This document shows positions 41,622 through 53,203 of a DNA stretch of 64,000 nt, piece after piece. How positions within the stretch are numbered: the first letter of the stretch is position 1; the number at the start of each line of letters is the position of its first letter. The translations under genes and the position numbers were made by a program. The stretch lies in assembly GCF_048403405.1 (NCBI RefSeq), contig NZ_CP183129.1, one strand, 5' to 3'. This DNA is from Escherichia coli. GTDB taxonomy: Bacteria; Pseudomonadota; Gammaproteobacteria; Enterobacterales; Enterobacteriaceae. Below the pieces are notes generated by a model. That model made no database searches. It was not told the DNA's origin and saw only the letters and a list, made by a program, of their open reading frames with translations.

Positions 41622-41830
41622 TATCATGTGAATATATTGTTTTATCATTTATATTTAATATGTGAATGGTAAAACAATCTGTTATTAGTGGAATAACTAA
41701 TGTAATTGAGTGAAATCACTAATTTAAATAATTAAGAATATATTTATTCTTTATGACATGCCTTTCTGAATAATCAGGGATACAATATTAAAGCTTATTT
41801 TTGACTGTATCATTGTCACAGGGAAAGTGC
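41622..41830 (+). promoter_or_regulatory. AT-rich upstream region of sinH-like gene (candidate promoter / nucleoid-protein silencing region)
   Basis: About 200 bp with very high A+T, at the island's left junction. Confidence 0.45.
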
Positions 41831-44008
41831 ATGCTGCGATGGAAACGCTGTATTATTCTAACATTTATCTCTGGTGCTGCTTTCGCGGCACCAGAGATAA
41901 ATGTTAAGCAAAACGAATCGTTACCTGATTTAGGTAGCCAGGCAGCACAGCAGGATGAACAAACCAACAAGGGTAAATCGCTGAAAGAGCGCGGAGCCGA
42001 TTACGTCATCAACTCCGCCACGCAAGGGTTTGAAAACTTGACCCCTGAGGCGCTGGAATCTCAGGCCAGAAGCTATCTGCAAAGTCAAATCACCTCAACC
42101 GCACAATCTTATATTGAAGACACACTCTCTCCCTACGGTAAGGTCCGTTCGAACCTCTCCATTGGCCAGGGCGGCGATCTGGATGGCAGTTCCATCGATT
42201 ATTTTGTTCCCTGGTACGATAATCAAACCACTGTTTATTTCAGTCAATTTTCTGCGCAGCGAAAAGAAGATCGTACAATCGGGAATATTGGTCTTGGGGT
42301 AAGACATAATTTTAATGAATGGTTATTGGGTGGAAATATATTTTATGATTATGATTTTACCCGAGGACATCGCCGTTTAGGTTTAGGCGGCGAAGCGTGG
42401 ACTGATTATTTAAAATTCTCTGGCAACTATTATCATCCGCTTTCTGACTGGAAAGACTCTGAAGATTTCGACTTTTATGAAGAACGCCCTGCGCGCGGCT
42501 GGGATATTCGTGCCGAAGCCTGGTTACCTTCTTATCCGCAACTGGGAGGCAAAGTTGTCTTCGAGCAATATTACGGCGATGAAGTCGCCCTTTTTGGTAC
42601 GGATAATTTGGAGAAAGATCCCTACGCGGTAACACTTGGACTGAATTATCAACCGGTGCCATTACTAACCGTTGGGGCGGACTATAAAGCGGGGACCGGA
42701 GATAACAGCGATGTCAGCATTAATGCCACTCTTAATTATCAGTTCGGCGTTCCGCTAAAAGATCAATTGGATAGCGATAAAGTGAAAGCGGCTCACTCGT
42801 TGATGGGCAGTCGTCATGATTTTGTTGAGCGTAATAACTTTATTGTTCTGGAATACAAAGAAAAAGATCCGCTTGATGTCACCCTGTGGTTAAAAGCGGA
42901 TGCCACCAACGAGCACCCTGAGTGCGTCATTAAGGACACTCCCGAAGCGGCCGTCGGGCTGGAAAAATGTAAATGGACCATTAACGCGCTTATCAACCAC
43001 CACTACAAAATTGTCGCTGCGTCATGGCAGGCGAAAAACAATGCTGCCCGCACGCTGGTTATGCCGGTTATCAAAGAGAATACCCTGACAGAGGGTAACA
43101 ATAACCACTGGAACCTGGTGCTGCCCGCCTGGCAGTACAGCTCTGACAAAGCCGAACAAGAAAAACTCAATACCTGGCGAGTACGTCTGGCACTGGAAGA
43201 TGAAAAGGGTAACCGACAGAACTCTGGCGTGGTGGAAATCACCGTTCAGCAGGACCGTAAAATAGAGTTGATTGTTAATAACATCGCGAACGTGCCGGAA
43301 GAGAACAACCACAGCCACGAAGCCAGCGCTCAGGCAGATGGCGTTGATGGTGTGGTGATGGATCTCGATGTAACCGACAGCTTTGGCGATAACACCGACC
43401 GCAATGGCGATGCGCTGCCGGAAGATAACCTCACGCCGCAGCTTTACGACGCGCAGGACAAACGAGTGACGTTAACCAACAAGCCTTGCTCGACCGACAA
43501 CCCCTGCGTTTTTATCGCTAAACAAGATAAAGAAAAGGGCACTGTCACCCTCTCCAGTACCTTACCCGGCACCTATCGCTGGAAAGCAAAAGCTGCGCCC
43601 TACGACGACAGTAACTATGTGGATGTCACTTTCCTCGGGGCAGAAATTGGTGGGCTAAATGCATTTATCTATCGTGTGGGGGCAGCTAAACCCAGCAACC
43701 TGATAGGTAAAGATAAAGAACCGCTGCCGCTCAACAACACTTATCGATTTGTTTTGTGGCGTGACAGCAATAAAGACGGTGTCTTCCAGCAGGTCGAAAA
43801 ACTGACTGACGAAGAGATGGCGCAGTACGACTACAAGTGGGAATTTACCGGCAAGAGCATCAATGGTGAAGTGGGTGCACAGGCGAACACTTCCAATGAG
43901 GACATTGTGATTCCGGCCACTAACCGCGAAGCAGCGCAAACCTATGGCGCACAAGCGGGAGATGGCTTGCAGGGATACGGTTTACGCGTGCTGTATACCA
44001 AAAAATAA
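41831..44008 (+). CDS. sinH: Inverse autotransporter (intimin/invasin family) adhesin, SinH-like
   Basis: Signal peptide MLRWKRCIILTFISGAAFA; inverse-autotransporter beta-barrel-like segment (GNIGLGVRHNF...NIFYDYDFTRGHRRLGLGGEAW); C-terminal passenger; start 41831 preferred over ORF-track 41801. Confidence 0.8.
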   Translation: MLRWKRCIILTFISGAAFAAPEINVKQNESLPDLGSQAAQQDEQTNKGKSLKERGADYVINSATQGFENLTPEALESQARSYLQSQITSTAQSYIEDTLSPYGKVRSNLSIGQGGDLDGSSIDYFVPWYDNQTTVYFSQFSAQRKEDRTIGNIGLGVRHNFNEWLLGGNIFYDYDFTRGHRRLGLGGEAWTDYLKFSGNYYHPLSDWKDSEDFDFYEERPARGWDIRAEAWLPSYPQLGGKVVFEQYYGDEVALFGTDNLEKDPYAVTLGLNYQPVPLLTVGADYKAGTGDNSDVSINATLNYQFGVPLKDQLDSDKVKAAHSLMGSRHDFVERNNFIVLEYKEKDPLDVTLWLKADATNEHPECVIKDTPEAAVGLEKCKWTINALINHHYKIVAASWQAKNNAARTLVMPVIKENTLTEGNNNHWNLVLPAWQYSSDKAEQEKLNTWRVRLALEDEKGNRQNSGVVEITVQQDRKIELIVNNIANVPEENNHSHEASAQADGVDGVVMDLDVTDSFGDNTDRNGDALPEDNLTPQLYDAQDKRVTLTNKPCSTDNPCVFIAKQDKEKGTVTLSSTLPGTYRWKAKAAPYDDSNYVDVTFLGAEIGGLNAFIYRVGAAKPSNLIGKDKEPLPLNNTYRFVLWRDSNKDGVFQQVEKLTDEEMAQYDYKWEFTGKSINGEVGAQANTSNEDIVIPATNREAAQTYGAQAGDGLQGYGLRVLYTKK

Positions 44009-44062: not shown

Positions 44063-45040
44063 ATGAAGCAGGATAAAAGACGCGGTCTGACCCGGATCGC
44101 ATTGGCGCTGGCACTGGCAGGTTATTGTGTGGCACCTGTGGCGCTGGCGGAAGAAAGCGCCTGGGTCGACAGCGGCGAAACCAATATTTTCCAGGGAACC
44201 ATTCCGTGGCTCTATTCGGAAGGGGGAAGCGCTACGACAGATGCCGACCATGTAACGTTGACTTCAGATCTAAAAGGCGCTCGCCCGACAGGTAGTGAAA
44301 CGGACAAGCGTCTTTACTCGGGTGATAAATTAACCGTAAGTTGGGAAATTGGTGATACCGAAGGCGACGTGGATCTTGGGGGATTGGGCGATAACGCAAA
44401 GACTATCGATACTATCCGCTGGATGAGCTACAAGGACGCTCAGGGTAACGATCCAAAAGAGCTGGTAACGAAGGTGACCAGTTACACCCTTACCGATGCC
44501 GACCGTGGTCGTTATATCGGTATTGAAATTACGCCAACCACGCAGACCGGTACGCCAAACGTCGGGAATGCGCTGCATCTTTATGACATTTCCACTGCCA
44601 GCGGCGGCGGAAGCGACAGCGACAACGTTGCGCCAGGGCCGGTGGTTAACCAGAACCTGAAAGTCGCCATCTTTGTTGATGGTACCAGTATCAACCTTAT
44701 CAACGGCAGCACGCCAATCGAACTTGGCAAAACCTACGTGGCCAAACTGTACTCGGATGAGAACAAAAACGGCAAGTTTGATGCGGGTACCGATGCTGAC
44801 GTTACCGCCAATTATGACTTCCGTTGGGTACTTTCTGGCAGCAGCCAGCAGCTCGGCACCTCGGGTGGTATCGTTAACTCAAGCTTCGATAATAACAATC
44901 TGGTCATCCCTGCGACCAACGAAGACGCCAGAACCAACCTTAACGGCCCTGCGCGCGATGGTAAAGAAGCTCTTACCATCCCGACCAACGGCGACGGGGT
45001 ACAGGGGTACAAACTTCACATTATTTACAAACACAAATAA
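44063..45040 (+). CDS. sinI: Secreted protein SinI-like (signal peptide; shares C-terminal domain with SinH-like passenger)
   Basis: 325 aa, signal peptide ending VALA; C-terminal ~95 aa align with SinH-like C-terminus (VIPATN...DG.QGY.L...Y.K). Confidence 0.65.
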   Translation: MKQDKRRGLTRIALALALAGYCVAPVALAEESAWVDSGETNIFQGTIPWLYSEGGSATTDADHVTLTSDLKGARPTGSETDKRLYSGDKLTVSWEIGDTEGDVDLGGLGDNAKTIDTIRWMSYKDAQGNDPKELVTKVTSYTLTDADRGRYIGIEITPTTQTGTPNVGNALHLYDISTASGGGSDSDNVAPGPVVNQNLKVAIFVDGTSINLINGSTPIELGKTYVAKLYSDENKNGKFDAGTDADVTANYDFRWVLSGSSQQLGTSGGIVNSSFDNNNLVIPATNEDARTNLNGPARDGKEALTIPTNGDGVQGYKLHIIYKHK

Positions 45041-45048
45041 CGCGTACT

Positions 45049-45085
45049 CAGCAGCATTCCCGCAAGGGAATGCTGTTTCCGCATA
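45049..45085 (+). terminator. Hairpin/terminator after sinI-like gene
   Basis: cagcattccc-gcaa-gggaatgctg followed by TTTCCGCATATTTT. Confidence 0.5.
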
Positions 45086-45116
45086 TTTTGCTTAATCCCG
45101 GATTAAGCAAAATATG
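45082..45116. promoter_or_regulatory. 35-bp perfect palindrome upstream of giant gene
   Basis: catattttgcttaatcc-c-ggattaagcaaaatatg, 17-bp arms around a single central base, ~45 bp upstream of start codon. Confidence 0.45.
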
Positions 45117-45160
45117 TTGATGCGACAAGCGTCCGTTTAACAACCGGTGGAGTTTCTGTC

Positions 45161-48100
45161 ATGTCCCTGACCCTGAATAAAATCCTTGTGTTATGCGCAT
45201 TGCTGATAAGCGCAATGCTGCCTGGGTGGTCATGGGCAGAATCTGCATGGCAAGACTCTTCAGATACGGTCGGCGAATTTAACGGTACCGTGCCCACCGC
45301 CGACAGTGCCAGCATACCCGTCTACCAGGGCAGTGTCTTTCTGGATCCTGCAAAGACGCATGAGGTAGCGTTTACCGCTAAACCGAGTGAATTCAGCGCG
45401 GATATTAGCGTCTCTAAATTGCTCGTCACCAATCCGCAAGACAGAGAAGGCGATATCATTTCCACCCCACGTTGGGAAAACCAAACGCCACCGACAGTAT
45501 CTTTAGTTTGGGCGGATGCCGCGACGCCGGACACCTTACTGGACCCACAGCCAGTCGCAGATCGCTCGTTTTGCGCTCAGGGACTTGCCGGGCGTTCGCT
45601 GGTCGCCTGGGCGCAGCCTGATCCCCAACAGACCATGCCGCTGTTATATTTACTCACCTCGACGGGCTATCCCTATGAAAGTGTTCTGACGCTCGCCGAT
45701 CAGAAAGTGACGCTGAAGATTGCGCCCGCGCAGGGTGACCTTATTTCCGTCAGCGCCGCGGGCTATGACGAATCCTCCGGTGCGGCGAAAACGACGGTTG
45801 GCGGCAGTATCACGTTAACGGTCACCACCAAAGATTGCGTCGGTAATGTTGTGGGGAATATTCCTTTTGTTATCAAACGCAAAGATGCTGAAAACCGCCA
45901 GGGTGTGGTGAACAATACTGCGCCGGTAAAACTGGGCACGACCGAATTAACCACCACCGCGACGGAATATCGTGGTACTACCGATGCGAATGGTGTTGCC
46001 ACGGTTACGGTCACCCAGGCCAACGGCCCTGGTGTAAAAACGCCGTTGGTCGCGAGCCTTGCGGGTATTGCTCAGGCCAGTGAAACGGCAGTGATCTTTA
46101 CCGTCCTCACCAGCCCGGATGTCCCGCAGGCTACAATGTGGGGTCATATGCCCGATACGCTGAAGGCCCGTGATTACACTTTTAGTCGACCAAAACTGGC
46201 GGCGGAAGTCGATAATGAAGACGGTACGGTTAACGATCACAATGAAACCTGGTCCACCTTTACCTGGAGCGGCGCGGATAAACATTGCGACATTTTGCCC
46301 GGAATGCGTCAGTTCGGTGCGCTGGCGACGGTGGTGCCAACGTCAGTGCAGGATGTGGCTGGTTGGCCGATGCAGGGTAATTTCTACTGGTCATCACTGG
46401 CGGGGATGAGTGGCCAGCACCATGCGGCGGATGTTTCGAACCGCAGCGAAGCGCAAAAACCGGACGATACGACGTTTATTGTGAGCTGTGTCGATAAAGA
46501 AGCGCCCGATGTTGAACCGAAGCTGGTACTGACGCCGGGCAGTTATGATTCGACGATAAAAGCGATGAAAGTAAAGGTGGGGGAAGAGGCTTCTTTACGC
46601 CTGACGATTACCGATAGCAAGAACAACGATCAGCCGCTGGCGTACTACTACTTTTCGCTGCATCTGGATGACGGCGTTAACCGTAAGAATCAAACTGACA
46701 CCGCGTGGCAGGCGAATCCGGTACAAATAGCGGGCGGCAGTAATGTCCATCAGGTTGACGCGCATACCTATGAAGGGATCACTGATGCTAACGGAGAGGC
46801 CTCTCTGACGCTGACCCAGCCAGGCGGTGTGGGGGTGAAAACTCACATCACCGCGAGAATGCGCAGCGATTTTACCGCCTCGGATGAGAAAGACGTTATT
46901 TTTACGGTGATCACCAGCCCTGATTCCGACAAAGCGCGGATGTGGGGACATATGTTGGGCATTATTGAAGCGAATAATATCTTTAAACGCCCACGGCTGG
47001 CGGATGAAACCGACAACGAACTGGGAGCAGTGCGGGAAAATAACGAAGACTGGGCGCTGTTTGATCAGAATAGCAGTATGCAGGCTGAGTGTGGTTTAGG
47101 TCATATTCCGAGCCAAAGCTCATTGCACAGTTTGTTTGCCGCACATCCAGCCAATGTCATCGGCACCGAATATGGCTGGCCAACGTTGCAAAAAGCGTAT
47201 CTTAGTGCGGTGGAAGAGACGTCGCACGCGTCGGTGAACCTGGCCACGGGCAACATCGACACCTATTCCGGCTTTAAGCAAAACTACCTTTCTTGTTCGG
47301 GCAATGAGATGGTCGCCCAGATTGCTGCGACCACCGATCATGATGTTTCCACAAGCAGCAGAGCGCAGGCTAAAGTGGGTGAAACGATTACCATGACGGT
47401 ACGCACCTTTAATGCCTTGAATAATGCGCCCGTGCCGTATACCGCGTTCACCATCACTAAAGATATGGGGAAAAATCGTCAGGGGCAGAGCACGGGTTTC
47501 GATGATCCAACCCGCGGCGCAATCGAGATGAATGGCACGCTCTACGGAACATCGCAACCGTCTTTAGTCTATGCAGGTACTACGGATGCGCAGGGTTTTG
47601 CTACTGTGGAAATTAAGCAACCGCAAGGTGTGGGCTTAGCGACGCCGCTGAATATTGCGCCTGTAAACTCCTATATTCCCAATACTGTTAATTACAATGT
47701 GATTTTCACTACGCTCACCAGTCCGGATGCGGTTGGCGCGCAGATGTGGGGGCATATGGATGAGACGATTACCGTCGATGCATTAACCTTTGCCCGACCC
47801 CGGCTGGCTGCGGAAGTGTCCAGCCCGGACGGCACATTAACGGAAAATAACGAAGTGTGGTCGCGCGTTAGCCAGGCCAACACTTCCAGCACCAGTAAAG
47901 GTGGCTGTGGTGCCAATATGCTCCCACGCCGTTCCCAGCTTAACGCGCTCTATGATGCTAACAGCGGTAACGCCGTTCAAACGGTACACGGTTGGCCAAC
48001 GCAGCGTCAGCCCTACTGGAGCAGTTCGCCCGCGGATCAGGTGCCGCATTACTACACCATAGCCCTCAACGATGGCGCGCGGACCGTTGGCGGTAGCACG

Positions 48101-51100
48101 GCGGTTTATGTCAGTTGCCTGACGACGGCTAACAATCCTGCCAGCAGCATTACGCTGGAAGTGGTGGACCCGGCGCAGTGGAACGCGGCAGCAAATGCGG
48201 CGAAGCTGAAAAAAGGCGAAACGCTACAGGTGAAGGTGACGGTAAAAGATGCTCAGGGCAATCCATTGGGTGATATGCCTTTTACGCTGAAGCGTGGCGA
48301 TGGTTATACCCGATCAAACGAAAAACACATTGCCGGTAGCGGTGATGCGCTGGTTGCGCCGGTTGTGATCAATAGTGGCCTGGCGGATGAAACTTCGCTC
48401 AATGATACCGCCGCAGCATACAGCGCGATGACCGGTAGCGATGGCACTAAAATTCTCACTATTACCCGCCCGGATACCCATGGCACAAAAACGTCGCTGA
48501 CCGCCGCGCTCTATTCAGACACAACGAAAAAAGCGACCCTCGATACCATTTTTACCGTTGTCACCAGCCCAGACAGCAATAAAGCGAAAATGTGGGGGCA
48601 TATGCCGGAAACGGTGACGGCTGCGGATGGAACGGTCTTTAAACGCCCATTATTGTTGAAAGAGTTATCCAGTACGTCGGGTCGAACAGCGATTGCAGAA
48701 GATAATGAGGACTGGGCGCAATTTACCCAAACTCAGGCGACAAGCACATCCTCTAATGGTTGTGGTAGTGAATATGTTCCCTCTCAGGCCGGGCTGGAGT
48801 CATTGTATGAAGCCAACCGCGGCAATGCGATGAAAACGGTTCAGGGCTGGCCCGTCGCCTCAAGTTACCTTACCAGCACGACAGGCAGCAGTAGTCTGGA
48901 ACAGCGTGACTTAAAGGCCGTCAATCTCAGTTCAGGCACCAGTTCGATAATTCCATCGGCCACAAAAGAACTGCTTACCTGCCAGACGACGCCGATCGTC
49001 AAGGCTAGCCAAATCGTTCTTGAGGCTGCGGACCCCACAAAATTTGACAGTACGAATAATGTTGTCAAAGCGAAAAAAGGGGAAGAAGTCGTGGTTCGCG
49101 TGACCACTAAAGATTCGCAGGGTAACCCGGTGGGAAATACCGCGTTTACGCTTAAACGTAACCTTAGCGTCAATCGGGCAAATGCGTCTACAACGGTGAC
49201 AGCAGGCGCGCTCATCGTGACGGATGCCTGGGGTAACACGCAGAGTAATTTTTCCTCAACAACAGCACTGATTTATGGCGTTACCGGCGCAGATGGTACG
49301 ACAACACTTGCACTGAAACAGGACAATACCACGGGTTTAAAAACCGAACTGACCGCCATGCTGGATACAGATAATAACGTAAAATCAATGCTTCCGGTGG
49401 TCTTTACGGTGATAACCAGCCCCGATACCCCTAAAGCAAAATTCTGGGGGCATATGGCCGAAACGATGACCGGTGCTGGCGGGCTTATTTATAAAAGACC
49501 GTTATTGCAAGATGAGCTTTCCGTTACAACCAGTCGAAGCTCTTTTCAGGAAGATGGAGAGAGCTGGTCACTGTTCTCGCCGGACCAGTCGAACAACACA
49601 TCTGTAAATGGTTGCGGTGCAGGATATGTCCCGGTTGAAAGTGAGCTGGAGTCACTGTATGCCGATGAAGGTTACGTGCCAATACATGACGTTACGGGAT
49701 GGCCTGTATCACGCGCCTATATCTCCAGTACGGTTGTTGCCTATTACACTCAAACATTTAATTTTAAAGCGGTTTCGTTAAAAACGGGTGATGGAACGGA
49801 GGTCATGTCAAGCAGTATAGGACTGCTAAGTTGTCGGGCTACCCCAGTGGCGGTGACCAGCCACATTATTGTTGAAGCGAACGATGCGACACAATTTGTC
49901 AAAGTTGACGAAACCCTCAGCGCACTAAAACGGAAAAAAGGTGACGACGCGGTGATTCGCGTGGTGACAAAAGATGCGCAGGGAAATGTCGTACCAAATG
50001 TTCCGTTTATTCTCAAACGTGAAGGATCGACAAATCGCCAGAATGTACAGTTGTCGAACAGAACTATCACTGTAATCAACGCTGCGGGAACGTCGGCAAG
50101 AGTGGATACTCCATCAATCTCCCTTTATGCGGTGACAGGTGCAGACGGGACAGCCACGTTTACGGTAAAGCAGGATGATTCTATAGGCCTGGTAACCAAT
50201 GTGTACGCTCAGGCCTATCAGTCGAGCCTGGAATCCAACAAATTACCCGTGATGTTTACCGTGATAACCAGCCCGGATACCCCCCTGGCAAGTTACTGGG
50301 GGCATATGGCGGAAACGTTCACTACGCGTTCTGGTACTGCCTTCAAACGCCCCTTACTCTCTGCTGAAAGATCGTCGGGCCAGTCGTTTATAGAAGACAA
50401 TGAAGAGTGGGCCGTGTTGAGATCGGCAACAAAGGGGGATATCGATAAAAGCGGGTGCGATGTACATTATCAACCACTGTTAAGCGAACTACAGGCATTG
50501 TACGACGAACACCCAAGTCGTGCGATAAAGACCGATCTGGGTATTCCGGTAAATAGCTACTGGTGGGCTTACGACATGGTGGCATATGCGGGTAACTGGT
50601 ACGATCAATATATTTATCTGTTAAATGGATCAAGTGGAAGAGCGTCTTCAACCACCTCGGCATTAATGCTGTGCCTGGTAAACCCTCATCCAGAGGCGGC
50701 TTCTATTGAAATGACCTCAACGGCGGAGGATGCAACGAAAACGGCCAGCAATGATGGCAGGCCCAGCGCAACAGCGAAGAAGGGAGAGGTTATCCCGATG
50801 ACTGTTACGGTGCGAGATAGCGCAGGCAATCCACTGCCAGGTGCCAGCTTTAACCTTAAACGAGGAACTGCGCTGAACCGCGCTAAAGCTGCGTACGATG
50901 CCTCTGCAGATGATCTTACCATCATACCTGTGGAACCTACTGGGGTAACGTCAATCTTGTATGGGGATGGGACGCAGGCTCTTCTGAAGACAGGGAGCGA
51001 TGGTAAAGCTACGTTTGAGGTCAGCCAGAATAGCAGTTATGGGCTGTCAACGCCGCTCAGCGCAGAACTCATGCGCGATACCTCGAAAAGCGTCACGCTG

Positions 51101-53203
51101 GATGTCATTTTCACGGTGATAACCAGCCCGGATTCGCCAAAAGCGAAATACTGGGGCCATATGCCGGAAACGTTTACCAGTTCGGCAGGCGTGACCTTCA
51201 AGCGCCCATTACTGGCAGCGGAAGCGACTACGGGGAGCTCGGTAAACGGTAATAATGAGACATGGTCATATATATATAGTACTCAAAAAGCGACGGCAGA
51301 TTGTTCGCTGGAATATCAACCGCGCCTCAGCGAATTGCAGGGGTTATATGACGATCACCCAAACGGGGCGTTAACGAAAGATCTGGGGTTGCCGATAGCG
51401 TCAGGAAACTGGTGGATTTATGAATTGCTTAACTCCAATGGTAGCTCCTGGTATTACCAGGTCTTTAACCTAAGTACGGGACGAGCATCATCCGCACTCT
51501 CTCCGGTTGCTCTAATGCTCTGCCTGGCACAGCCTCACTCTAAGCCGTCAAGCGTTACCCTGACTTCAATAGCATTTGATGAGACGAGAACCGCAAGTAA
51601 CGGCGGTACACCTTCGGCATCGGCGAAAAAGGGCGAGACAATCCCGTTAGTCGTGACAGTAAAAGACCAAAATGGCAACCTGCTGAGTGGCGAGAGCGTG
51701 ACGCTTCAGCGGGCACAGGCGAAAAGTCGTTCAGGAATTAGGCCCTCATCGTCGGCAGATGATCTTATTGTAGATGTCATCACACCGACAGCGGTCAGCA
51801 TTCCCTTTACTCAGGATACGGCAAAATGGCTTGGCTTTACCGGCAGTGATGGCACAGTGACGTTCAATGTTACGCAAAACGCCACCACCGGCCTGGCAAC
51901 GCCGTTTACGGTCTCGCTTGCACAAGATCCGCAGATCACGTCAAACCTGGACCTGATATTTACCGTGGTCACCAGCCCTGACTCCCTGGATGCCAACTAC
52001 TGGGGCCATATGCCAGAAACGGTGACAGCGGCAAATGGAACCGTCTTTGAACGACCGAAATTGTGGAAGGAACTGCCATCGACCTCCGGGGTAAATAAAA
52101 CCAATAACAATAATGAGGACTGGCCCTATTTTTCGTCAACCACTAAAGCAAATTCCAGCCTCAGCCCTTGTGAGGAAGCCCGGCAACCGTTGCTCAGCGA
52201 TATGAAGTCACTGTATCAACGTTATCCCAATAACACCCTTACGACGGAAACTGGCTGGTCAGTTTATTATTACTGGTGGGCGCAGGATAAGACTACAGAT
52301 GGTAAAAATCAGTCGCTCAATATGAAAGATGGCACAACGACATTGAATGGTAATGCCGCTTATCAGGCGTGTCTGGTGTCTGCGCGCGCGACGGTTTCCA
52401 GCGTCACACTGACCTCAACAGCGTTTGATGCTGACAGCCAGGCGGCGAAAGTGAAAAAAGGCGAAGCCATGCCCGTTACCGTGACGGTGAAAGACAGCGC
52501 CGGGAATACGGTACCGAATGTGGAATTTACTTTGAAACGTGGCGATGCATCGCCGCGTAACGCTGGGGCGACGTTGTATGGTGATGTGGTGGCGATGGAC
52601 GATCTCATCGTTCAGCCGTTATCTGGTTCGGCTGTTACGCTGAGTGAAAGCGGTAATACCATTAGTGGCATGACAGGCGCGGATGGGACGGCAAGTTTTA
52701 CGCTCCGCCAGGATAATACCCCTGGTTATAAAACGCCACTGACGGTTACTCTGGCTAATTACGCTTCCGCGACAGACACGCTGGACGCTATTTTTACGGT
52801 ACCAACCAGCCCGAATGTTTCCTCGGCGCACTTTTGGGGACATATGGCAGACACTGTAGTGGTGAATGGTAAATCGCTACATCGACCGTTGTTAACGACA
52901 GAATTGCCGTCCGGGGCTAATCCCGTATCCTCACCGATTATTAACTACGAAAACTGGGCTTCTGCACATATCATTGATGCCAGTAAATGGGATATTGCAA
53001 GGCAGTGTGGCAGCATAGAAAATGCACCGACATACAATGAATTAGAGTTGTTGCACACTGTTTTTAATTCACTGGGATGGCCGTCTTCACCAAGTTTTCC
53101 TTATTTGTCCTCTCAACAGTGTGGGATGGACGAAGGCACTGGAGCACAGGATTGTAGTATCACGCTAATGAATAAACCGGGTCTGGTGACCTGCTTCCAG
53201 TAA
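45161..53203 (+). CDS. Giant secreted repetitive protein, RatA/RatB-like (Ig-like/adhesin-type tandem modules)
   Basis: 2680-aa uninterrupted ORF, signal peptide ...LPGWSWA; about nine ~270-aa tandem units each with (I/V)FTV(I/V)TSPD...WGHM, a Cys-containing segment and a KKGE...V.V.VKD..GN motif. Confidence 0.8.
45760..53203 (+). repeat. Intragenic tandem repeat array (~9 units of ~805-853 bp) within giant gene
   Basis: TSPD...WGHM motif recurs near 46092, 46897, 47701, 48548, 49400, 50251, 51104, 51956, 52790 (manual count). Confidence 0.75.

Follow-up and report, generated by a model that had tools for sequence, protein, structure and literature searches.

It is well established that hairpins between cistrons can tune the polarity of an operon. 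Between rplL and rpoB of E. coli, a partial terminator (attenuator) is followed by an RNase III processing hairpin, and expression of the downstream genes depends on read-through. At the sib element of phage λ, the tI terminator becomes an RNase III site only in transcripts that have read through it. In these systems, as in fimbrial operons, a partial terminator combined with a processing or stability hairpin sets the ratio of the proximal to the distal product. Here we analyze a stem-loop between a SinI-family gene and a giant adhesin gene of E. coli. Like rplL-rpoB, the locus has a probable weak terminator and then a long stem-loop at a junction within one operon, where the gene that follows is very long, but the two share no sequence similarity, the present helix is the shorter one (17 bp perfect, about 20–22 bp with an extension), and a role for RNase III would be assigned by analogy. 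The stem-loops of fimbrial and adhesin operons, such as the papB-papA processing site and those that follow major-subunit genes, are likewise cis RNA structures between adhesin-operon genes, where they could give differential stability and stoichiometry, and ompA-type 5′ stem-loops offer a further likeness in that a 5′ end left by processing would be shielded by a hairpin whose base is paired. The primary sequence of the fimbrial and ompA-type structures is not conserved, whereas the element described here has an invariant 8-bp core.

The window (the whole stretch of DNA analyzed, 64,000 nucleotides) is E. coli chromosome and is 100% identical to several swine and human isolates. Its gene order runs der, yfgJ (a zinc-ribbon gene), sinH, the SinI-family gene and the gene for a 2680-aa adhesin, followed by xseA on the opposite strand. 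The sinH product is an inverse autotransporter (PF11924). The SinI-family gene (44063–45040, + strand; stop codon 45038–45040) encodes a 325-aa autotransporter-associated protein, an assignment based on its open reading frame, on the RefSeq annotation of the 100%-identical region of E. coli CFSAN018748 and on homologues named as SinI family. The giant gene (45161–53203, + strand) encodes a RatA/RatB-like protein with nine BIg21 and nine InvE_AD repeats (Pfam PF05688 and PF05689), which RefSeq calls an adhesion domain-containing protein. The locus corresponds in E. coli to the sinH-sinI-ratA-ratB island of Salmonella, in which SinH, SinI and RatA/RatB are part of a CS54-type colonization island. 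The window allele is present in about 940 of 5426 complete E. coli genomes, including 536, CFT073 and ATCC 25922, whose copies of the palindromic element are identical to that of the window, and a divergent allele, whose spacer is only about 75% identical, in about 750 further genomes. The locus is horizontally acquired, and is probably silenced and counter-silenced. SinH is an ExPEC vaccine antigen (PMC9937491), and IatB, the E. coli SinH orthologue, mediates biofilm formation and is activated at the gene level by LeuO (PMC6714894), the one regulatory input for which we found evidence.

The spacer between sinI and the giant gene had been described beforehand as holding a perfect 35-bp palindrome, with 17-bp arms around a single central base, about 45 bp upstream of the giant gene start and downstream of a hairpin that follows sinI. 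Direct reading and an inverted-repeat search bear this out. The palindrome occupies 45082–45116 (+ strand), and its arms, CATATTTTGCTTAATCC (45082–45098) and GGATTAAGCAAAATATG (45100–45116), are exact reverse complements (100% complementary) on either side of C45099. It starts 6 nt after a G+C-rich hairpin (hairpin 1, 45050–45077) that itself lies downstream of the sinI stop codon, and 44 nt separate its end from the ATG at 45161. We refer to the palindrome as hairpin 2; its covariance-model match spans 45076–45125 at 67.1 bits. Its length is far beyond chance: in 30 dinucleotide-preserving shuffles of the window (loop ≤10 nt), the longest perfect inverted repeat had arms of 8–12 nt, against 17 nt here. 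A loop of one nucleotide is ruled out on steric grounds, so the hairpin that actually forms comprises 16 bp under a 3-nt loop. RNAfold assigns −21.1 kcal/mol to 45076–45121, and the whole spacer (45030–45175) folds into two hairpins at −52.1 kcal/mol (z = −5.1). Directly 3′ of the palindrome lies UUGAUG in place of a U-tract, and a terminator scan calls nothing at this position, in agreement with the initial view that the palindrome is not a simple terminator. The Shine-Dalgarno-like GGUGGAG of the giant gene (45146–45152, + strand, by sequence reading) begins 29 nt beyond hairpin 2 and is not paired with it in the minimum-free-energy fold, and the distance from hairpin to ATG differs among homologues. 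We rejected an RNA thermometer or translational operator because hairpin 2 sequesters neither the Shine-Dalgarno sequence nor the start codon.

Only one perfect inverted repeat in the window exceeds the palindrome in length. It spans 41859–41906 at the 5′ end of sinH (start 41831), 28 nt downstream of the start codon and within sequence that encodes the signal peptide; its arms measure 19 nt when perfect and 22 nt at 95%. The first 120 nt of the gene fold at −54.6 kcal/mol. This repeat is kept in Escherichia alleles with compensatory coding changes, for example ACATTT/AAATGT to ACGCTT/AAGCGT in E. albertii; shorter hairpins occupy the equivalent position in Pseudocitrobacter and one Citrobacter, whereas Salmonella has none there. 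The repeat may serve sinH as a structure that acts in translation initiation or mRNA stability. Upstream of sinH, the interval after the zinc-ribbon gene is very A+T-rich and holds an imperfect inverted repeat (41631–41683, 24-nt arms, 79% complementary), and this region is presumably an H-NS/LeuO-controlled promoter region. At the protein level, tblastn aligns the C-terminal ~115 residues of SinI (about 210–325) with the C-terminal end of SinH at 27–35% identity in many loci, among them L007–L010, L013, L020–L022, L027 and L031 (e.g. L007 3001–3309), matches that point to a domain apparently common to SinI and the tip of the SinH passenger.

Hairpin 1 (45050–45078 with its U residues, + strand, predicted from the minimum-free-energy fold) is terminator-like: a G+C-rich core stem pairs 45052–45061 with 45066–45075 around a GCAA loop and is followed by UUU at 45076–45078. 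Nearly all homologues carry it with covarying stems, at −17 to −25 kcal/mol. Most homologues have 3–5 U in this tract, whereas L017 and L031 have no tract at all, so the stem-loop and U-rich tract of an intrinsic terminator are present in part, and a consensus terminator scan, which requires 5 T of 8, does not call it. On this prediction, hairpin 1 is probably a weak or partial terminator. Two conserved flanks border hairpin 2 on the + strand. Upstream, UUCCGC (45077–45082) occupies nearly invariant columns; downstream, GUUGA (45116–45120) has an invariant UUG, and its first G and last A reach at least 90% conservation. UUCCGC can pair with GUUGA(A) to extend the base of the stem (U-A, C-G, a C·U mismatch, G·U, C-G), and both RNAfold and RNAalifold predict this extension in most sequences, which lengthens the helix to about 20–22 bp with one C·U and one G·U. 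Because UUCCGC is the tail of the hairpin 1 U-tract, the full helix of hairpin 2 would form only in transcripts that read through hairpin 1. This recalls λ sib, with the difference that sib extends the terminator hairpin itself, whereas here the structure is a separate second hairpin.

Two insertions show how the flank is arranged. In Escherichia sp. MOD1-EC7003 (L028 4344–4440), an insertion parts hairpins 1 and 2, and UUCCGC remains on the hairpin 2 side. In Escherichia sp. E1V33 (L011 4336–4560), an insertion of ~200 bp lies between the sinI terminator hairpin and hairpin 2; it contains REP-like GCCTGATGCG/GCATCCGGC palindromes, and after it comes a partial second copy of hairpin 1, with UUCCGC again still on hairpin 2.

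To follow the element across enterobacteria, we used an alignment of 20 SinI proteins to collect orthologous loci from one-genome-per-species contigs, with the Salmonella enterica, S. bongori and Kluyvera loci obtained by exact-protein look-ups. Wherever the element occurs, it lies between the sinI stop codon and the start of the RatA-like gene. Carriers within Escherichia comprise at least four E. coli allele classes (including EPEC O127:H6), E. albertii, E. whittamii and other Escherichia species; the remaining carriers are Salmonella enterica, S. bongori, five Citrobacter species, three Pseudocitrobacter, Superficieibacter and Kluyvera. The consensus reads UUUUCCGC-N4-UUUGCUUAR-N5-7-YUAAGCAAA-N4-GUUGAA, with a longer loop in some sequences. 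The 5′-arm core UUUGCUUA (45087–45094, + strand) is invariant in 20/20 protein-anchored sequences, its sole departure being a compensated G to A in E. albertii (L020); the 3′-arm core UAAGCAAA (45104–45111, + strand) has single mismatches only in L015 and L021, together with the compensating C to U in L020. Most homologues have a stem of 13–16 bp and a loop of 5–7 nt, and the apical AAUCC/GGAUU extension that completes the perfect palindrome occurs only in the Escherichia lineage of the window. Even within E. coli, 170 of 946 carriers (about 18%) differ by one base in the 42-nt query (45079–45120), one such variant being the ST95-type G45116A, which breaks the outermost pair. The lineage-specific apical extension and the one-base variants indicate that the perfection of the palindrome is incidental. 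By sequence comparison, the conserved object is the stem-loop plus its flanks.

A few loci mark the edges of this distribution. In Citrobacter sp. R56 (L016 4365–4450), the RatA-like gene is kept and the stem-loop is missing; flanks TTTTTGC...GTTGAG surround a short remnant, and the palindrome looks deleted. The element is also missing from Leminorella, which carries a different UUUGAAAA/UUUUCAAA hairpin at this place. Its loss in the Citrobacter locus and the different hairpin of Leminorella indicate that the element is dispensable in some lineages. It is missing as well from Lelliottia and Buttiauxella, in which SinI is about 31–34% identical and the downstream gene is mostly not RatA-like: in L024 and L027, from these genera, the gene after sinI is a second SinI-like paralogue in place of the giant gene, and only a simple terminator-like hairpin lies between the two. 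One 3.1-kb contig labeled as a Collinsella sp. metagenome-assembled genome (L006, JAIJJM010000381.1) matches the sinI, spacer and giant-gene region of E. coli at 98% identity; it almost certainly comes from E. coli and was binned wrongly into this actinobacterial assembly.

The divergent E. coli allele (L002, L003) carries the element CCTGTTTTGCTTAGCGACGCGTTAAGCAAAACGGG, which differs from the window by four double compensatory changes (A-U to C-G, A-U to G-C, U-A to C-G and C-G to G-C) and by two further pairs that become U·G and G·U, pairing only in + strand RNA. Across 20 distinct sequences, 91.8% of the cells of the 20-pair helix hold standard pairs, and the proportion is 92.9% in 29 sequences once nine metagenome variants are added; sliding the 3′ partner by 1–3 columns reduces it to 32–51% across both sets (35–50% in the 20-sequence set). 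Double changes fall at seven pairs and fill 33 cells among the 20 sequences and 47 among the 29, counts that overstate the number of independent events because the sequences are related by descent. In either set, 0/500 column shuffles reached the observed covariation score. The nine metagenome variants were fetched by an exact-core pattern and therefore carry no information on core invariance. SinI itself is only 41–46% identical across the depth at which the compensatory changes are seen.

The same comparison indicates which strand folds. Among the cells of the main helix that depart from Watson-Crick pairing, G·U outnumbers A·C by 32 to 3; such an asymmetry is meaningless for duplex DNA, would not arise from a structure on the − strand, and points to folding of the sense (+) strand. 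Consistent with this, the covariance model scores the + strand 20–40 bits above the − strand, and RNAalifold independently gives the same helix, including the basal extension. In E. albertii NBRC 107761 (L020 4417–4483), a core G-C pair has become A-U through changes on both arms, the loop has gained a 24-nt insertion, and the element still folds at −21.4 kcal/mol; over all homologues, hairpin 2 folds at −10.5 to −26.3 kcal/mol. The generic hallmarks of a cis-regulatory RNA, namely compensatory pairing, orthologous positions and a transcribed strand, are all present. Taken together, these sequence comparisons show hairpin 2 to be under selection for base pairing on the + strand. The preliminary description had weighed a dimeric-regulator operator against an RNA stem controlling read-through; the covariation, the G·U bias and the RNAalifold helix favor the RNA stem, as a sense-strand structure, and control of read-through by it is plausible.

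How might such a stem-loop act? The spacer has no visible promoter, and hairpin 1 is followed by only 3–5 U, or by none in two lineages, which together suggest that the giant gene is probably transcribed by read-through from sinH-sinI. In the model we propose, transcripts would pass the weak terminator-like hairpin 1 to reach the 8-kb gene, and hairpin 2 would then form in the read-through RNA, its base pairing with the tail of the hairpin 1 U-tract to give about 20–22 bp with one C·U mismatch. The tandem hairpins would uncouple the operon post-transcriptionally. They would do so as a processing site, cut by RNase III in the long helix or by RNase E in the U-rich linker, and also as a stability barrier, serving as a 3′ hairpin for the sinH-sinI RNA and as a 5′ stem-loop for the giant-gene RNA; either would set the expression ratio of SinH/SinI to the giant adhesin. 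RNase III sites call for about two helical turns (roughly 20 bp) of largely unbroken double-stranded RNA; the helix measures 16–17 bp perfect in the window, about 20–22 bp with the extension and its C·U and G·U, and 13–16 bp plus the extension in homologues. For Salmonella, late-stationary-phase dRNA-seq lists no transcription start site in the locus, the TIER-seq supplements contain no entry on that locus, and we found no cleavage or transcript-end data in the literature. A conserved, functional cis RNA stem-loop of the sinH-sinI-ratA-like transcript with a role in processing or stability proposed by analogy, taken as one joint claim, is the interpretation we lean towards, with modest confidence.

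One feature sits uneasily with a purely structural role. The core and both flanks are nearly invariant to a degree that structure alone does not explain, which suggests a factor that reads the sequence of the helix as well as its shape. Strong core conservation is unneeded for RNase III or for an exonuclease barrier, and a different, sequence-specific mechanism may therefore be at work. Hairpin 2 and its flanks could, for instance, be a protein-binding site or a trans-RNA pairing site that modulates termination, Rho or RNA polymerase processivity in the manner of nut/boxB, put or RAT elements. The near invariance of core and flanks beside stem pairs that covary freely suggests such sequence-specific recognition, the element directly follows the terminator-like hairpin 1 with the U-tract in common, and long genes are, as a rule, sensitive to premature termination. 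Against this, hairpin 2 stands downstream of the terminator and not upstream of it or overlapping it, as in RAT or attenuator switches; we found no mutually exclusive alternative pairing; and no regulator gene, RNA-binding candidates included, was found in the conserved locus. Nor is there a conserved ops or boxA-like element: RfaH ops matches were limited to one-mismatch sites at chance frequency (7 against 3.8 expected in the window), none in the spacer, and TTTAACAA (45136–45143), boxA-like in its likeness to the 3′ portion of rrn boxA, is not conserved beyond this allele and does not occur in the other genera. A factor-dependent read-through switch is a possible but doubtful explanation. 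We regard as rather unlikely, too, the more specific proposal that the hairpin, its core and UUCCGC/GUUGA form the recognition site of a dedicated, putative RNA-binding factor or nuclease that would license the giant RatA-type adhesins of Escherichia, Salmonella and Citrobacter.

Several further motifs were inspected and set aside. A GGA in the loop, as in CsrA sites, occurs only in some Escherichia alleles. Cores of the integron attC type (GTTRRRY/RYYYAAC) fail because the upstream inverse core is absent. Long-range pairing with the copy of TAAGCAAA at 41905–41912 in sinH was rejected, as 8-mer counts do not depart from chance, and the sinH copy belongs to coding sequence and is limited to Escherichia. 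Within the giant gene, GGCGGTAGCACG at 48089–48100 is a one-mismatch ops-like site.

A third possibility places recognition at the level of duplex DNA: a dimeric transcription factor would bind the inverted repeat TTTGCTTAA...TTAAGCAAA and control a promoter of the giant gene. Like dimeric helix-turn-helix operators, the element has two conserved, inverted half-sites of 8–9 bp (TTTGCTTA/TAAGCAAA across the 20 sequences, with single 3′-core mismatches only in L015 and L021), and the locus, gained by horizontal transfer, is probably subject to silencing and counter-silencing, with iatB activated by LeuO (PMC6714894). The spacing between the half-sites, measured between the 9-nt UUUGCUUAR and YUAAGCAAA, is however not fixed: it takes values of 6, 7 and 10 nt, and 24 nt in E. 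albertii L020, a variation that a dimeric operator would not tolerate. Positions outside the core do not drift independently, as they might outside protein contacts; seven outer or inner pairs carry double changes, and complementarity of this kind is not required by an operator. The strong excess of G·U over A·C, and the tolerance of G·U that it reflects, likewise run counter to recognition as a duplex. A promoter scan of 45040–45155 returned no promoter-like site, and −10/−35 candidates inspected by eye in homologues are not conserved; a promoter across the palindrome itself (TTGCTT-17-AATATG, or TTGAnn as −35) was rejected on the same two grounds.

An operator would also lead one to expect further sites, and the preliminary description had suggested that the same palindrome elsewhere in the genome might reveal a regulon. 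The 17-mer at ≤3 mismatches has one site in the 64-kb window. The 42-nt query against 5426 E. coli genomes (E ≤10) finds one locus per genome in 946 of them, where matches in "two places" are the two strands of the same site, and covariance model R1 finds one site per locus over about 290 kb of related loci. The Salmonella ratA-ratB spacer holds no such element. A metagenome-wide pattern scan for the core plus RTTG listed 80 loci; 41 encode SinI and/or RatA relatives beside the match, and in every one of these 41 the outer stem is paired and a UUCCGC-type flank is present. Of the remaining 39 listed loci, none has such a flank and most have no outer pairing, consistent with chance or unrelated hairpins. 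No regulon emerges from these searches: no second site appears in the window, in the 946 E. coli genomes, in the ~290 kb of loci or, among the metagenome matches listed, outside a sinI/RatA setting. With its covarying stem, G·U bias, variable spacing and single copy, and with neither an adjacent promoter nor a regulator gene in the locus, the element is improbable as a dimeric-regulator operator.

A very stable stem only 6 nt after a terminator-like hairpin could also be the second half of a tandem, compound terminator for sinI, but the stem is A+U-rich, UUGAUG or UUGAAn replaces a U-tract in every homologue, the terminator scan does not call it, and efficient termination would silence a giant gene that has no visible promoter of its own, so that we consider this very unlikely. 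REP and BIME elements resemble hairpin 2 as intergenic palindromes able to stabilize upstream mRNA, but a REP is an imperfect, G+C-rich sequence that recurs hundreds of times, whereas this element is A+U-rich, single-copy and locus-specific; the single copy in all searches also answers the concern, raised at the outset, that the palindrome might prove to be a common repeat-family element. A DNA-level hairpin or relic of a mobile or repeated palindrome (REP/BIME-like, a MITE end or a recombination site) with no role in expression, to which the typical perfection of such palindromes and the REP-containing insertion beside the element in Escherichia sp. E1V33 might point, is scarcely credible for a sequence found at one locus per genome in 946 E. 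coli genomes and once per related locus, syntenic across genera with compensatory evolution, and whose out-of-context matches have no flanks and mostly no outer pairing.

The conserved intercistronic stem-loop is therefore an undescribed element of a conventional kind. Rfam 15 contains no family for it; the three matches returned are spurious microRNA precursors (17 bits against gathering thresholds of 49–95, E 2–6). The finding overturns no concept; what it brings to the enterobacterial catalogue is a structured RNA that had no annotation and for which a covariance model is now at hand. If a dedicated factor does recognize the hairpin, the element would represent a locus-specific post-transcriptional or antitermination switch for an H-NS-silenced colonization island, and a new RNA family. 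At the junction of sinI and the giant gene, hairpin 2 and its flanks offer a mutable handle on the co-transcription of the giant gene with sinH-sinI, and on the level of an adhesin whose rat genes run to 6–8 kb.
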